From assembly GCF_003334305.1 (NCBI RefSeq), contig NZ_QOWS01000003.1: a stretch of 64,000 bases of DNA; one strand, written 5' to 3'. The stretch comes from Escherichia coli. GTDB lineage: Bacteria > Pseudomonadota > Gammaproteobacteria > Enterobacterales > Enterobacteriaceae. Below the pieces are notes generated by a model. The model saw nothing but the letters and a program-made list of their open reading frames with translations, searched no databases and was not told the DNA's origin. Positions 862 through 7,752 of the stretch are shown in pieces. Every line of letters begins with the position of its first letter. The first letter of the stretch is position 1. Position numbers and translations under genes: made by a program.

Positions 862-3009
862 TTACGCCAGTGCCGCTTCGCGCAGGCGAGTTTTCAACTT
901 GTTGTACTCGTCAATCACGTACTGCTCGGCGGCGCGCTGATCGGCGATCGGCTCGACGCGCACGGCGCAGTATTTGTATTCCGGCGTTTTCGTAATCGGG
1001 CTTAAGTTTTCGGTAACCAGCTCGTTACAGGCACCAATCCACCACTGGTAGGTCATGTAAATCGCCCCTTTGTTCGGACGATCGCTGACCTGCGCACGGG
1101 TGATAATTTTGCCTTTACGCGAGTGCACCCAAACCAATGCCTCATCTTCAATACCCAGACGTTTGGCGTCTTCGGTATTGATTTGTGCGTAGCCAGGTTC
1201 ATCAGCCAGCGCCGCCAGTGCCGCACAGTTACCGGTCATCGAACGGCAAGAGTAGTGACCAACTTCACGCACCGTTGACAGTACCATCGGGTACTCGTCG
1301 GTGAGTTTGTCGATTGGCGCTACCCAGTCGCAGGTGAAGAACTGTGCCAGACCGTTCGGGGTATCAAACTTCTCTTTAAACAGATAAGAAGTCCCCTGAT
1401 CGGCATCTGAAGTATCGCGGCAAGGCCACTGAATGAAGCCCAGTTCGCCCATTTTCTCGTAAGTCGCACCGTAGAAATCCGGGCACAGATGACGCAACTC
1501 ATCCCAGATCTCCTGGGTGTTGTTGTAGTGCATCGGATAACCCATACGGGTGGCGATTTCACTGATGATTTGCCAGTCCGTTTTCAGATCCCATTTCGGT
1601 TCAACTGCTTTGAAGAAACGCTGGAAGCCACGGTCAGCCGCAGTAAACACGCCTTCATGCTCGCCCCACGACGTTGACGGCAAAATGACATCCGCCGCCG
1701 ACGCGGTTTTGGTCATAAAGATGTCCTGAACGATAACCAGTTCCAGATCTTCAAAGGCTTTACGTACTGCCGACAGCTCCGCGTCAGTTTGCAGCGGATC
1801 TTCGCCCATAATGTACGCGGCACGCACTTCGCCATGCGCTGCGCGGTGCGGCAGCTCGCTGATGCGATAACCGGTATGAGCAGGCAGGCTTTCCACGCCC
1901 CAGGCTTTGGCGAATTTCTCGCGGTTAGCCGGATCTTTCACGTACTGGTATCCCGGATACGTATCCGGCAGCGCGCCCATATCGCAGGCACCCTGCACGT
2001 TGTTCTGACCACGAACCGGGTTTACACCCGCATGCGGCTTACCGAGGTTACCGGTCAGCATCGCGAGGCTGGTCAGAGAACGCACGGTTTCCACGCCCTG
2101 GTAGAACTGGGTTACACCCATGCCCCACAGGATGGCGGCGCTTTTCGCCTGGGCATACATCCGTGCCGCCTGACGAATCTCACTGGCGCTGACGCCGGTG
2201 ATATCTTCAACCGACTCCGGCGTGTAGCCTTCAACGATTTTACGATACTCTTCAAAGCCTTCTGTACGGGAAGCGACGAACGCTTTGTCGTACAGATTTT
2301 CTTCAATAATGACATGGCCCATCGCATTCAACAGCGCGATGTTCGAGCCGTTTTTCAGTGCAATGTGCATGTCAGCAATGCGCGCGGTTTCAATTTTGCG
2401 CGGATCGCAGACGATAATTTTCGCCCCGTTACGTTTAGCGTTAATTACGTGATTCGCCACGATTGGGTGGGAATCCGCCGGGTTGTACCCGAAAACGAAC
2501 ACTAAATCGGTATTATCAATTTCGTTAATAGCATTGCTCATTGCGCCATTACCGACCGATTGGTGCAGACCTGCAACCGATGGGCCGTGTCAGACACGAG
2601 CGCAGCAGTCAACGTTATTGGTACCAATAACGGCGCGCGCAAATTTTTGCATTACATAGTTGGTTTCGTTACCCGTACCACGCGAGGAGCCGGTCGTCTG
2701 GATGGCATCCGGACCGTACTTCTCTTTGATGGCGCTCAGGCGCTCGGCAACGTAATTCAGTGCCTCATCCCAGGAAACAGGTTCGAGTTTGCCGCCACGC
2801 TGGCGACGGATCATGGGGGTTTTCAGGCGCGGGGTCAGGATCTGGGTATCGTTAATGAAATCCCAGCCATAATAACCCTTCAGACACAGGGTACCCTGGT
2901 TGGTTTTCCCCTGCGCTGCCTCCGCCCGGACGATTTTGCCGTTATCGACGACCAGGTTGATTTTGCAACCTGATGCGCAATAGGGGCAAACCGTGACGAC
3001 TTTTTTCAT
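862..3009 (-). CDS. fdhF: formate dehydrogenase H (715 aa), selenocysteine-containing; in-frame TGA at 2590-2592 decoded as Sec
   Basis: ORF-track segments 2590-3009 and 862-2541 are in the same frame and separated only by one TGA; N-terminal CPYCASGCK Fe-S motif; SECIS hairpin directly 3-prime of the TGA. Confidence 0.95.
2548..2589 (-). other. SECIS selenocysteine-insertion stem-loop inside fdhF
   Basis: mRNA reads UGA-CACGGCCCAUCGGUUGCAGGUCUGCACCAAUCGGUCGGUAAUGGCG, the classical fdhF SECIS. Confidence 0.88.
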
Positions 3010-3060
3010 CGGTCTCGCTCCAGTTAATCAAATCACGCATACGCGCTCTCGACTACAGTA

Positions 3061-3076
3061 TGCATCTTTTATGCCA
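3061..3076 (-). promoter_or_regulatory. sigma54 (-24/-12) promoter of fdhF
   Basis: minus strand reads TGGCAT-AAAAG-ATGCA, matching TGGCAC-N5-TTGCA; about 55 nt upstream of the fdhF start codon. Confidence 0.7.
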
Positions 3077-3178
3077 CATTTTATTTGGGGTCATTCCCTG
3101 ATATTACGGGCACTATTTATTCAAAACTCTGACGAAAAACAGGCTGTCGTCAGTTTTGACGTGACGAAACGAAATACC

Positions 3179-3196
3179 GCGTGACAGCCATCACGC
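3179..3196 (-). terminator. candidate stem-loop after mdtP (weak U tract)
   Basis: inverted repeat GCGTGA-N6-TCACGC 10 nt downstream of the mdtP stop; also falls in the expected fdhF upstream activating region, so the role is tentative. Confidence 0.3.
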
Positions 3197-3206
3197 GGCA
3201 GACATT

Positions 3207-4673
3207 TTATTTTTTCTCGACGACGGGAGCCGCCTGATACCCGCCGCCCAGCGATTTCATCAACTGAATGCTTTGGATCACCCGGCGGCTGTCCAGCATC
3301 AGTAATGACATCTCTTCGGCAAGTACTGGCAACCGGGCTTCAGTGGCCTGTAAGCGGCTGGTTAAGCCGCGCTGATAGGCGGCCTCGGCAGCGCGCTGGG
3401 TGAAGCGCGTTGCTTCCACGCGTTCAGCCTGCATTTCTCGCTCGTCGTTGAGCGTTTGCAGACGCGTGCCGTTGACGGCAACGTCACGCACCGCGTTCAG
3501 TACTGACTGGTTGTAACGTTCAATCATCATGTTGCTGGCGGCGCGCGTGCCTTCGAGATTGGCATTCAACCGTCCACCGTCAAACAGCGGCAATTTCAGA
3601 CCCGGGATGAAGTTGAACTGGCGACTGGTTTTTTTGAATAAGGTATCCAGGTGGATGGCATCAAGGCCGAAAAACGCTTTGATATCAAAGCTCGGGTAGA
3701 ACAGCGCCCGCGCGGAATCCACCTGATCTAATGACGCCTGAACATACCAGCGCATGGCTTGCAGATCCGGGCGTCTGGCGAGCAACTCATAAGAGAGTGT
3801 CGCCGGAATGCCGGTCTGGACTCGTGGTAATGCCACCGGTTTGATCTCCGGCATATCGCTGGCCCCCGCGCCAATCAATGCACGCAGAGATTCTCGCGTT
3901 TCGGTGATTTGCCCTTTGACGGCAGCAATTTGTTTATCGACCGCCAGAATCTGTGCCCGCGCGCCGTGGAAAGGCACTTGTGCTTCCAGACCGTGCGCCA
4001 CTTTACTCTGGTGCGCTTTCACCGCGTAATCAATCACATCGCGAGTTTGTTCTAACAGATCGAGCATCTGATAGCTGGCCTGCATACTGTAATAAAGCTG
4101 CGCTACGCCCGTGGTCAGCGATAGCTCTACTGCTGCGGTTTCTGCCAGCGCGGCATTATGCGCGCCAATGGCGGCGGCAACCGCTGAGCGATGCACACCC
4201 CACAAATCAAGATCCAGTCCGGCAAACAAACCTACTGTGGCTTCCGTATAGTACGGCCCGTCCATACCCAGTGCGGGCGCATCCATCGCATAAGGGCTTA
4301 AAAAGCCGTTCGCCGAGACGCGTTGGCGGTTGAGCATCCCTAACGCTGCGACCTGTAATTGTGAACCGGCATCTAACAAATCGGCCTGGGACTGCGCTTT
4401 TTCTTCCCGCAGTTTCGCTTCGGCGAGGGTGTGTGAACCACTTAGCGTCCGTTGGATCAGCGCATCCAGCTGCGGGTCATTGAGTTGTTTCCACCACTGC
4501 GCCTGCGGCCAGCCGGAGCTGGCAAGATGAATATCGTCGGCCAGTTTGATTTGTTCCGGTTTGAGCTGTTGATGAGGTGCAGAATCCTTACGTACCAGGG
4601 CACAGCCGGAAATCAGCGTCGTGCTGCCGAGAATGCTGCACAACAGCAGACGTGAAAGTTGACGATTGATCAT
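3207..4673 (-). CDS. mdtP: outer-membrane efflux channel lipoprotein (TolC-like OMF) of MdtNOP system
   Basis: 488-aa ORF with lipoprotein-type N-terminus (LISGC lipobox); 4-bp overlap with upstream mdtO. Confidence 0.92.
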   Translation of the reverse strand: MINRQLSRLLLCSILGSTTLISGCALVRKDSAPHQQLKPEQIKLADDIHLASSGWPQAQWWKQLNDPQLDALIQRTLSGSHTLAEAKLREEKAQSQADLLDAGSQLQVAALGMLNRQRVSANGFLSPYAMDAPALGMDGPYYTEATVGLFAGLDLDLWGVHRSAVAAAIGAHNAALAETAAVELSLTTGVAQLYYSMQASYQMLDLLEQTRDVIDYAVKAHQSKVAHGLEAQVPFHGARAQILAVDKQIAAVKGQITETRESLRALIGAGASDMPEIKPVALPRVQTGIPATLSYELLARRPDLQAMRWYVQASLDQVDSARALFYPSFDIKAFFGLDAIHLDTLFKKTSRQFNFIPGLKLPLFDGGRLNANLEGTRAASNMMIERYNQSVLNAVRDVAVNGTRLQTLNDEREMQAERVEATRFTQRAAEAAYQRGLTSRLQATEARLPVLAEEMSLLMLDSRRVIQSIQLMKSLGGGYQAAPVVEKK

Positions 4674-6721
4674 TGCGTGGCTCCTTGTGCCTGTTCCGTG
4701 GCGGGCGTTAATGCCGGGGCTGTCCAGTCTGGCAAGCGGGCGAAAAGCTGGCAGACGTGTTGCTCCTGTTTTAATAAGGTGGGCAGGATGGCCTGCGAGG
4801 CGGGTGTCTCTTCAAGCGTTATTTGAGGAGAACGGCTGAGTGCGGTTGCCAGACCGGCAGCGTATTTCTCCAGGGCGTCGGCAAACTGAGCTGCTCTGTC
4901 CGGCTGTAGTGCGTTATCCAGCGCCTGCGCCGAGTTCCAGGTGGCATCCCAGGCGTGAAGAATATCGCGGCCCTGACGAATAACCGTTTGCGAACGTTCA
5001 ATCAGTAAGGCGCGTTCTTCGCTGTCCAGTTGACGCTCCAGCGCCACGCGTTGGCACATCTCTTCACAGGCATTAAACGCCGCATGCAGACCGATACGAA
5101 TTTGCAGATAAGTGCGCAGAGCCGTGACTTCCTGCTGGCGTGGGATCCGCATTACTTTACTTAACATACCCAGCGTGCCAGCCAGTTTTTGCGGCAGTGT
5201 GCGCGCTTCACTTTCAGGCCAGACAAAGGTGTAAATCACCGCGGACACCACGGTACCAATGATGATACCCATGGCGCGATCGCGAATTTCCACCAGGTCG
5301 TACACCGGGCCAAAAACGTTTTCGAGCGTGGCGAGCGCGAAGGTGACCACCATCTGTGTGCCGATATAAGAAGAGCGTTCAGAGCTGGTGGCAATCCATG
5401 CGCCCAACAGGAAAATCGGTGCCAGCACAAACAGCAATTCGACAATATTGTCCAGCCAGGGCATGACCAGTAGCGTGAATAACAGCGCCAGAATCGCGCC
5501 GCAAAAGGCCCCGCCAAAACGCAGCACCATCTTCTGGTACGACGAACCGACATTTGGGTTAGCGACGATCACGCATGTCAGCATACAGGTGTGAATGCCT
5601 TCCCAGTCCACGCCGCTGTAGAAGGTGTAACAGATCAAACAGGCGAGCAGTGTTTTTACCGCGTAGCGCATATAGTCTGGATTGGTAAAAGCATCGGCGA
5701 CCATTGATGGCGGTTTGGCGGCGGGCGTTGGCGGCGTATTCGGGTCCATCTGGCCCAGTTGTAACAACGTCTGGCAGATATTCTCCAGGTTACATTCCCG
5801 TGCCGCCATCGCTTCACTTTCAGTGATCCGCCAGTCGCTTTGCCAGCACTGACCTTCAGCAACGGCATGCTGCAGCTTATTGATTTCTGAGGCTAATTTT
5901 TGCCGAAATTCAATAATTGCCTGAGAATCAGCAAAAGAGGTGGGATCGTAGCGATTCAGCGTCGAGTAAATGTAGGTTACCGTTGCCACGCAGCTTTGCC
6001 ACCATGCGCTTTGAGTTCGCCAGTTGGCATCGTCCGCGAGACAAAAGACATTCAGTTTTTGCAGCGCCAGCGCCTCTCTTTCAATCCGCGTTTCGGGTAG
6101 CGGTGCGAGGCTGTCCGTCAGGTGACTAATGGCATCATCAAGCCGATCATTAAGCGCTTGATGCATTTGCGTAATGGCACGACTGGGAAACCACAGCACG
6201 CCGATTAACGTCATCAGCAAGGTTGGATAGAGGCCAACAACGATACACCACAGCGTTAAGCGCACGACCACTTCCGGATAGTCGAGCATGGCGGGGAAGG
6301 TTTGCCCGTAAATGGCGACAATGGCGACAGCGAAAAAGACCAGTCCCAGCCGATGGGTGCGCATCAAAAACATACAGCCCATCAGGATCGGCCCGGCGAT
6401 GATCAATCGGATCAACGGTTCGCCGTATGACCATTTGTAGATCAAAAACAGGCTGCCGATCTCCAGCACCGTGGCAACCACAAACAAGATCGCGACAAAT
6501 TTGGTGTAAAACGCGTTCGACTGAATACCGTAAAACAGCACTGCCAGCGATAACGCCACAAAAGGGATCTCAAAAGTCATCGAGATCAGAATCACCAGCA
6601 GGCAGCCTACCCAGAGTTGCACGATCTGCGGCACGCGGCCTGGTCGCCGCTCGCTTAACTCTTCATGAAAGAACGCCAGCAGCCTGACCACCGGTAATGG
6701 CAGGGAGTTGAGCGCGCTCAT
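4670..6721 (-). CDS. mdtO: inner-membrane efflux permease (FUSC/aromatic acid exporter family)
   Basis: 683-aa polytopic membrane ORF; overlaps mdtN stop and mdtP start. Confidence 0.92.
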   Translation of the reverse strand: MSALNSLPLPVVRLLAFFHEELSERRPGRVPQIVQLWVGCLLVILISMTFEIPFVALSLAVLFYGIQSNAFYTKFVAILFVVATVLEIGSLFLIYKWSYGEPLIRLIIAGPILMGCMFLMRTHRLGLVFFAVAIVAIYGQTFPAMLDYPEVVVRLTLWCIVVGLYPTLLMTLIGVLWFPSRAITQMHQALNDRLDDAISHLTDSLAPLPETRIEREALALQKLNVFCLADDANWRTQSAWWQSCVATVTYIYSTLNRYDPTSFADSQAIIEFRQKLASEINKLQHAVAEGQCWQSDWRITESEAMAARECNLENICQTLLQLGQMDPNTPPTPAAKPPSMVADAFTNPDYMRYAVKTLLACLICYTFYSGVDWEGIHTCMLTCVIVANPNVGSSYQKMVLRFGGAFCGAILALLFTLLVMPWLDNIVELLFVLAPIFLLGAWIATSSERSSYIGTQMVVTFALATLENVFGPVYDLVEIRDRAMGIIIGTVVSAVIYTFVWPESEARTLPQKLAGTLGMLSKVMRIPRQQEVTALRTYLQIRIGLHAAFNACEEMCQRVALERQLDSEERALLIERSQTVIRQGRDILHAWDATWNSAQALDNALQPDRAAQFADALEKYAAGLATALSRSPQITLEETPASQAILPTLLKQEQHVCQLFARLPDWTAPALTPATEQAQGATQ

Positions 6722-7752
6722 TATTGCGGCTCAAGATTAGCGACTGCCGAAGCGCCGATGCGGAACATTTCCGGGTCAGGTTTATCGACCATGATTTTGA
6801 CCGGAAAACGCTGGGCAACGCGGACCCAGTTAATAGAGCGAGAAACTTTCGGCAGGCCGCCCAGCACCAGGCCGCCGTCATCCGGTAGCACGCCGTAGCC
6901 AATCGAATCCACTTTACCCTCGAAGGTTTTGCCGCTGTCACTCATCAGGCGAATCGTTGCGGGTGTACCTGAGCGAATATTTTTCAGATCGGTTTCGCGG
7001 AAGTTGGCGATCACGTACCAGTGACGAGTGTCGATTAGGGTAAAAATAGGGCGCATGGCAGAAGCAAATTGCCCGACGGAGGTTTTGAGGGAAATGACCC
7101 GACCATCAAACGGCGCGCGAACGGTCGCCATTTCCAGATGAAGTTTGGTCAGGGCAATATCCGCTTCGACCGCCGCACGTTGCGCCACCAGCGCATCGAC
7201 GCCGCTGACGGCGCTGGCGGCTGACTGCGCCTGTAACAATACGGCATTAAGATCGGCTTCTGCGGCGCGCTGCGCAGTTCTTGCACGGTCAACGTCTTCC
7301 GCTGAGACAAAACCCTCTTTCAGTAATGGCTCGGTGCGGCGTAATGTATCTGTGGCCTGTTTCGCGGCGGCACGGGCTTTTTCTACCGTGGCATTAATCG
7401 AGTCGGCACCAAACTGTTGCGCATCAACGCTACGCTGGGTGAGCATAATTTGCTTATCCAGCGCCGCGAGGGAGGCTTCAGCTTTCGCCAGATTGGCTTC
7501 GAACGGGCGCGGGTCAATGCGGAACAGCAAATCGCCCTGTTTGACTGCCTGGTTGTCGGTGACCGCCAGTTCTACAATGCGGCCGCTGACTTCCGGCACC
7601 ACATCAATGGTATCTGCTGACGCGTAAGCGTCATTAGTTGATGGCGCACTGTCTACGCGCCAGATAACGAAAACAAGGGCAACCAGCGCCAATGCAACCA
7701 CTAACAGAGCAGGGAATTTACTGCGAGGAGCTTTTTTCGGCGTACTTTCCAT
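6721..7752 (-). CDS. mdtN: membrane fusion protein (HlyD-family periplasmic adaptor)
   Basis: 343-aa ORF with single N-terminal TM helix and coiled-coil region; 1-bp overlap with mdtO. Confidence 0.92.
   Translation of the reverse strand: MESTPKKAPRSKFPALLVVALALVALVFVIWRVDSAPSTNDAYASADTIDVVPEVSGRIVELAVTDNQAVKQGDLLFRIDPRPFEANLAKAEASLAALDKQIMLTQRSVDAQQFGADSINATVEKARAAAKQATDTLRRTEPLLKEGFVSAEDVDRARTAQRAAEADLNAVLLQAQSAASAVSGVDALVAQRAAVEADIALTKLHLEMATVRAPFDGRVISLKTSVGQFASAMRPIFTLIDTRHWYVIANFRETDLKNIRSGTPATIRLMSDSGKTFEGKVDSIGYGVLPDDGGLVLGGLPKVSRSINWVRVAQRFPVKIMVDKPDPEMFRIGASAVANLEPQ

Follow-up and report, generated by a model that had tools for sequence, protein, structure and literature searches.

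The DNA analysed here is a window of 64,000 nucleotides, the whole stretch under study, with Escherichia coli as source species; a 501-nt query around the site of interest matched 5420 of 5426 complete genomes. The site is the intergenic gap between fdhF and mdtP, which spans positions 3010-3206 (197 bp). The gene names fdhF, mdtP, mdtO, mdtN and ytcA were taken from the RefSeq annotation of identical E. coli sequence. The translation of mdtP terminates in ...VVEKK*, with the stop codon TAA at 3209-3207. The features of the locus, in the direction of transcription where they belong to the gap, are as follows.

862-3009, minus strand: fdhF coding sequence (ORF list and RefSeq annotation)
3207-4673, minus strand: mdtP coding sequence, last gene of ytcA-mdtNOP (ORF list and RefSeq annotation)
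4670-6721, minus strand: mdtO
6721-7752, minus strand: mdtN
3209-3207, minus strand: mdtP stop codon TAA
3206-3201, minus strand: spacer AATGTC
3200-3175, minus strand: hairpin TGCCGCGTGAT-GGCT-GTCACGCGGTA
3174-3165, minus strand: tail TTTCGTTTCG
3169-3146, minus strand: enhancer core TTTCGTCACGTCAAAACTGACGAC
3139-3129, minus strand: proximal element TTTTTCGTCAG
3110-3093, minus strand: conserved block CCCGTAATATCAGGGAAT
3077-3061, minus strand: sigma-54 promoter GTGGCATAAAAGATGCA
3050, minus strand: predicted transcription start
from 3009, minus strand: ATG of fdhF

All of fdhF, mdtP, mdtO and mdtN, and likewise ytcA, are encoded on the minus strand. The genes are therefore arranged in tandem and not face-to-face, and the convergent transcription from mdtNOP into the fdhF enhancer that had been proposed in a preliminary description of this DNA does not take place; convergent interference is inapplicable because mdtP and fdhF share a strand. 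The spacer is drawn as 'fdhF < < mdtP' in PMC8743547. The arrangement is an ordinary compact layout of tandem genes, in which, as the preliminary description had stated, a single stretch of 197 bp accommodates the sigma-54 promoter and the FhlA enhancer as well as the point at which mdtNOP transcription has to stop. RNA polymerase that runs out of mdtP passes the hairpin (3200-3175), then the enhancer core (3169-3146) and then the promoter (3077-3061). The stem-loop that had been placed within the control region is real and non-random; it is, however, not buried there, as it precedes core and promoter in transcription, and because the polymerase meets it first it has the look of an insulator upstream of the control region.

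No sigma-70 promoter was found in a scan of positions 2500-3800, with no sign of a promoter within the end of mdtP. A plus-strand ORF at 2993-3184 (63 aa) was treated as spurious. An Rfam search of positions 2400-3400 (E <= 1) returned the SECIS element of fdhF only, leaving the gap without any match.

fdhF is an oxygen-sensitive selenoprotein gene. Its in-frame UGA codon (selenocysteine) lies at 2592-2590 and is followed by the bacterial SECIS element (Rfam RF01988; match at 2597-2543, minus strand, 87.1 bits), which is why the gene appears cut into pieces of 139 and 559 aa in the mechanical ORF list. Product names for fdhF differ among RefSeq genomes (an example being E. coli O157:H7 strain Z1833, NZ_CP062705.1, locus L085): 'formate dehydrogenase H subunit alpha' and 'formate dehydrogenase subunit alpha' are both in use, and one record reads 'formate dehydrogenase N subunit alpha'.

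Promoter and enhancer of fdhF

The sigma-54 promoter of fdhF and its FhlA enhancer are textbook elements. A sigma-54 promoter with an FhlA upstream activating sequence was reportedly described by Birkmann and Bock in 1989, by Schlensog and co-workers in 1994 and by Leonhartsberger and co-workers in 2000. The present locus is the same one as that of the classical fdhF promoter, with no difference in promoter or core.

The sigma-54 promoter lies at 3061-3076, where the preliminary description had put it, and reads TGCATCTTTTATGCCA on the plus strand, i.e., TGGCATAAAAGATGCA on the minus strand. The -24 GG is located at 3075-3074 and the -12 GC at 3063-3062, with a GG/GC spacing of 10 nt in the pattern TGGCAC-N5-TTGCW. 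The -24/-12 motif agrees with a ChIP-seq entry: the 17-mer GTGGCATAAAAGATGCA is the motif of the sigma-54 ChIP-seq peak OS41, which has fdhF on the minus strand as its assigned gene and is listed in EcoCyc as an experimentally confirmed promoter (PMC4591121). For OS41, a start was predicted 41 bp ahead of the fdhF ATG, at a distance of 19 bp downstream from the centre of the motif (PMC4591121), and +1 is therefore placed at window position 3050. A gSELEX peak of the RpoN holoenzyme was reported in the fdhF-mdtP spacer (PMC8743547).

For comparison, 80 fdhF loci of Enterobacteriaceae were collected in a scan of one genome per species. The sigma-54 motif (GG[CT]A-N8-GCA) was present in 77 of these 80 related loci.

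An activator region about 100 bp upstream of the promoter had been expected, and it was found: the ACGTCA of the enhancer core begins at position -112 relative to the predicted start and 87 nt ahead of the -24 GG, which is within the 70-150 bp upstream of a sigma-54 promoter where an enhancer is looked for. The core TTTCGTCACGTCAAAACTGACGAC occupies -119 to -96 from the predicted start and holds the palindrome CGTCA-AAAC-TGACG. This position is consistent with the classical fdhF upstream activating sequence, which the classical work reportedly placed at about -110. The best match in the gap to the FhlA matrix was CGTCAAAACTGACG (3161-3148, -111 to -98), which scored 8.2 bits and belonged to the top 0.08% of the 14-mers of the window. 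The matrix corresponds to the consensus TGWC-N6-GWCA, itself palindromic (PMC7658346, Table 2); it was built from 13 sites, is weak and backs the core site alone, and for this reason phylogenetic footprinting was relied on instead. The two best matches to the matrix in the entire window (12.4 and 14.0 bits, 46646-46668) are situated inside the dcuS/dcuR coding sequence, which shows that the 13-site matrix discriminates little.

The core was near-invariant in 73 loci and was found at a near-fixed distance from the -24 GG, which was 87-88 nt in most loci (approximately 64) and 78-79 nt in a minority (nine loci). Pluralibacter is among this minority, and the loci with 78-79 nt include L009, L029, L031, L038, L049, L058, L072 and L077. 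The shorter distance is less by approximately one helical turn, which suggests that phasing on the face of the helix is conserved. The proximal element TTTTTCGTCAG (-89 to -79) carries a second copy of TTTCGTCA, located 32 nt downstream from the one in the core; it corresponds to direct repeat D2 plus inverted repeat I4 and is highly conserved in loci without mdtP. Midway between enhancer and promoter, the block CCCGTAATATCAGGGAAT is conserved both with and without mdtP (columns from 50 non-mdtP loci); it is loosely IHF-like and could provide a DNA bend for looping. In an ungapped alignment on the core anchor, the near-invariant columns of loci without mdtP comprised TTCGWCACGTCAAA..TGACGA, TTTTTCGTCAG, the CGTAA..TC block and the promoter. 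Since these columns are also near-invariant where mdtP is absent, the control module of fdhF forms a unit that moves together with this gene and is conserved whatever the upstream gene.

A hairpin behind mdtP

The stem-loop noted earlier at 3179-3196 was recovered and reads GCGTGA-CAGCCA-TCACGC on the plus strand; 8 nt of each arm (3177-3184 and 3191-3198) pair perfectly. On the minus strand, the RNA forms the hairpin UGCCGCGUGAU-GGCU-GUCACGCGGUA with an 11-bp stem (3200-3175), which begins 6 nt after the mdtP stop codon. Its predicted fold has -19.6 kcal/mol, compared to -10.5 +/- 2.5 kcal/mol for shuffled sequences (z = -3.58), and one of 200 shuffles was as stable. A scan for the terminator pattern alone was not above chance (two sites, with 1.5 +/- 1.3 expected from shuffles); what sets the hairpin apart from chance is that it starts 6 nt behind the stop codon, that its fold has the z-score just given and that it is conserved only where mdtP is adjacent.

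A stable GC-rich hairpin on the coding strand just after the last stop codon is what an intrinsic terminator requires. As in the Rho-independent terminators at E. coli operon ends, which have a GC-rich stem of 8-11 bp and a loop of 4-6 nt a few nucleotides after the last stop codon, the hairpin is followed by a T-rich stretch and preceded by an A-rich one (GAGAAAAAATAAAA), and its pairing is conserved. The tail TTTCGTTTCG (3174-3165, minus strand) is T-rich, and its last 5 nt (TTTCG) are shared with the enhancer core. The corresponding U-tract, UUUCGUUUCG, has six U in 10 positions and is interrupted by C and G, unlike the U-tract of usual Rho-independent terminators, because those bases belong to the downstream enhancer (TTTCG). 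With an interrupted U-tract, the efficiency of termination may be modest. The tract is poor in Pseudocitrobacter (CCUCUUCG) and richer in U in the Kluyvera and Salmonella copies. The 14-nt spacer contains on average 6.1 T in mdtP-adjacent loci vs. 4.8 T in the other loci (Mann-Whitney p = 0.002, a test that ignores kinship). A second departure from usual terminators concerns the 3' arm of the hairpin, on which a DNA motif of the adjacent gene imposes a further constraint. The predicted mdtP terminator is otherwise an ordinary member of the intrinsic-terminator class.

The 3' ends directed by the hairpin are predicted at about 3172-3165, i.e., past the distal GTCAC motif described below and short of core and promoter. 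The view that mdtNOP transcripts terminating before 3179 would speak against a connection with fdhF had assumed the wrong direction of travel. Entries for mdtP and fdhF are absent from the Term-seq supplements of PMC7815308 and PMC12207403, and no mapped mdtP 3' end was found there.

A bidirectional terminator was considered and rejected: a T-run on the plus strand begins 6 nt after the stem, and no plus-strand gene is aimed at the hairpin. A 7-nt perfect inverted repeat, GGCTGTC/GACAGCC (3142-3148 and 3183-3189), joins the loop and 3' arm of the hairpin with sequence just past the core. As its first arm is specific to Escherichia, it is probably a chance occurrence. A role in anti-terminator pairing was rejected, as termination is decided before the second arm has been transcribed and the first is Escherichia-specific.

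Comparison of fdhF loci

By tblastn, 11 of the 80 loci have a full-length mdtP that ends immediately ahead of fdhF: four Escherichia species, Salmonella enterica subsp. arizonae, two Kluyvera, three Pseudocitrobacter and Superficieibacter electus. In two loci (L021 and L022) mdtP is located farther from fdhF. The remaining loci have varied neighbours, and in many of them the nearest long upstream ORF is encoded on the other strand. For the 57-nt segment upstream of the core, the mean folding energy is -18.8 kcal/mol across the 12 mdtP-adjacent sequences (the 11 loci and the window) vs. -9.9 +/- 4.0 kcal/mol in the others. The full or strong hairpin was found only in mdtP-adjacent loci, which represent five genera.

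Among the 12 mdtP-adjacent sequences, 92.8% of the cells of the stem alignment were paired, and three pairs were changed on both sides; when the partner columns were slid by 1-3 positions, pairing fell to 15-60%. The observed count of double-change cells was reached in two of 500 shuffles, a control that ignores phylogeny and is applied to 11 distinct, related sequences; the number of pairs with a change on both sides was unexceptional (50 of 500 shuffles). For example, K. cryocrescens and S. arizonae have the arms CGCATGA/TCATGCG in place of CGCGTGA/TCACGCG. Among 5421 E. coli records, 3884 carry an identical sequence at 3160-3215. Four variant records with three distinct alleles were examined: a G.U pair becomes A-U (ST131), a C-G pair becomes U.G (an O157:H7 strain), and a G.U pair becomes G-C together with a change of a loop base (14EC007). 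All three alleles (G>A, C>T and T>C) keep the pairing and leave GTCAC, core and promoter untouched. Collectively, these substitutions give modest support to base pairing that has been maintained in evolution by wobble and compensatory changes.

Where the adjacency is broken (K. georgiana L021, L022 and K. ascorbata L026), the 5' arm of the hairpin is gone or decayed and GTCAC is retained. In Citrobacter sp. wls619 (L023, 2619-2735), a 39-aa C-terminal remnant of mdtP is found upstream of fdhF with a derived hairpin still present, and in Kluyvera ascorbata (L026) a decayed hairpin, GCGTGATAAATGTCACCCC, precedes fdhF. Taken together, these two loci indicate an old adjacency of mdtP and fdhF that has been lost on several occasions.

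These data also bear on whether the hairpin has any function. It might be a GC-rich repeat that arose by chance, with mdtNOP transcripts ended by Rho or trimmed from heterogeneous ends; the terminator-pattern count, which did not exceed the shuffle expectation, and the absence of mdtNOP 3' ends from the Term-seq supplements PMC7815308 and PMC12207403 would agree with this. Such an origin is nevertheless highly unlikely in view of the fold z-score of -3.58, the retention of the hairpin in five genera only where mdtP adjoins, with changes that preserve pairing, and its decay once adjacency is lost. The reading preferred here, to which a probability of roughly 70% is given, is that the stem-loop is the Rho-independent terminator of ytcA-mdtNOP.

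According to this reading, the 44 nt that separate the stop codon of mdtP from the core of the fdhF enhancer would house the terminator, which would overlap the upstream edge of the enhancer because the space is so short. A polymerase coming from mdtP would transcribe the hairpin (3200-3175) and leave the template at about 3172-3165, within the T-rich tail. Read-through would then not run over the enhancer with its bound FhlA (3169-3129) or the closed complex of sigma-54 (3077-3061), and fdhF would be kept strictly dependent on FhlA, formate and sigma-54. Termination at this site and a physiological importance of the insulation are both inferences. What is new in this respect is a well-supported prediction of the end of the ytcA-mdtNOP transcript.

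Overlap of hairpin and enhancer

The 3' arm of the hairpin contains GTCAC at 3185-3181 on the minus strand, i.e., -135 to -131 from the predicted start. Of the 57 loci without mdtP, 48 have a GTCAC located 19-27 nt upstream of the core anchor, compared to 0.6% of control windows from the same loci; of the hairpin, only this 3' arm is conserved with fdhF regardless of the upstream gene. The core contains the next GTCAC, 18-20 bp (approximately two helical turns) away from the distal one. The hairpin region does not match the full 14-nt FhlA matrix, reaching at best 4.4 bits (3195-3182) vs. 8.2 bits for the core, and the half-site TGTCA alone matches. Units of the GTCA type recur in other FhlA enhancers of E. 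coli, namely those of hydN (TGTCATCACATGTCATCGTCAC..TGTCGATGACA) and hyc-hyp (TTTCGTCGCCGTGTCGACGTGTCATTTCGACATCATCGACA). The distal GTCAC is a conserved, probably FhlA-related half-site, through which the fdhF enhancer probably extends to about -135. The literature searched, which did not reach the original fdhF deletion and footprint studies, yielded no description of the distal GTCAC or of its overlap with the mdtP hairpin.

The same motif raises the question of whether the inverted repeat CGTGA-N6-TCACG might serve as a DNA palindrome for FhlA or another regulator, with termination incidental or absent. The conservation of the GTCAC of the 3' arm in the 48 of 57 loci without mdtP, the recurrence of GTCA/TGAC units in the fdhF, hydN and hyc-hyp enhancers, the GTCAC-GTCAC spacing of about two helical turns and the palindromic nature of the FhlA consensus TGWC-N6-GWCA (PMC7658346) are all in line with this idea. 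The 5' arm, however, is not conserved where mdtP is absent, and so fdhF does not need the palindrome; the hairpin 14-mer scores 4.4 bits vs. 8.2 bits for the core site; the substitutions are of the RNA-pairing type (G.U wobbles) and would break a DNA palindrome; and the repeat lies 6 nt after a stop codon with a T-rich tail next to it. A DNA palindrome is thus considered unlikely. Best read as a terminator, the hairpin appears to borrow the distal enhancer motif as one of its arms, which is a neat detail rather than a new kind of system.

The reach of the fdhF enhancer to about -135, probable on account of the conserved GTCAC, and the reuse of this motif as an arm of the neighbour's predicted terminator are new. 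The overlap offers a small, clean example of a dual constraint on a short sequence, RNA pairing on the one hand and protein binding, presumed from conservation, on the other, and the two should be separable by mutation. For engineering purposes, an fdhF promoter fragment that begins at the mdtP stop codon includes the predicted terminator at its 5' end. The significance beyond annotation is small. If the overlap were itself functional, one DNA segment would serve both as an activator half-site and as an arm of an RNA hairpin. By binding the distal GTCAC and the core, FhlA might then act as a roadblock that raises the efficiency of termination when formate is present, or terminating polymerases might evict FhlA, so that induction of mdtNOP would dampen fdhF; a function of either sort is speculative and rather improbable.

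Tandem-promoter interference (promoter occlusion) is known for phage and bacterial tandem promoters, as are protein roadblocks to elongation. The mdtP-fdhF geometry permits it, with an upstream co-directional unit aimed at an activator-dependent promoter that holds a closed complex. If the terminator were leaky, read-through from the tandem ytcA-mdtNOP unit could displace FhlA or the sigma-54 closed complex (promoter occlusion) or yield FhlA-independent mdtP-fdhF co-transcripts, and induction of mdtNOP would modulate fdhF, which is the idea of the preliminary description in a corrected geometry. The genes are indeed co-directional, 197 bp apart and share the region, the U-tract is imperfect, a terminating polymerase would halt right against the core (3169-3146), and other enhancers of the FhlA regulon tolerate co-directional genes that end on them. 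Unlike in the known systems, however, a conserved predicted terminator stands between mdtP and fdhF. A stable hairpin upstream of the core that is maintained by selection argues that read-through was selected against and not put to use, and a literature search for joint mention of mdtNOP and fdhF returned no paper linking them. Regulation of fdhF by read-through therefore appears distinctly unlikely.

The insulation attributed to the mdtP terminator is not universal or obligatory for the FhlA regulon, since both hydN (after ascG) and the fdhF of Franconibacter lack an intervening terminator. In Franconibacter, a co-directional ORF stops approximately 10 nt before the fdhF core. In the hydN region of E. 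coli K-12 (L082:2100-2340, minus strand), the co-directional ascG ends with a stop codon 3 nt short of the FhlA enhancer, and no hairpin intervenes. The hydN-hypF enhancer of this strain (FhlA/sigma-54) resembles that of fdhF in having a co-directional upstream gene and is formed by a cluster of TGTCA, GTCAC and TGTCGATGACA; there is no space for a hairpin between stop codon and enhancer at hydN, whereas at fdhF a hairpin has been fitted in. A sigma-54 enhancer that shares the 3' region of a neighbouring gene is a recurrent layout, found at both fdhF and hydN.
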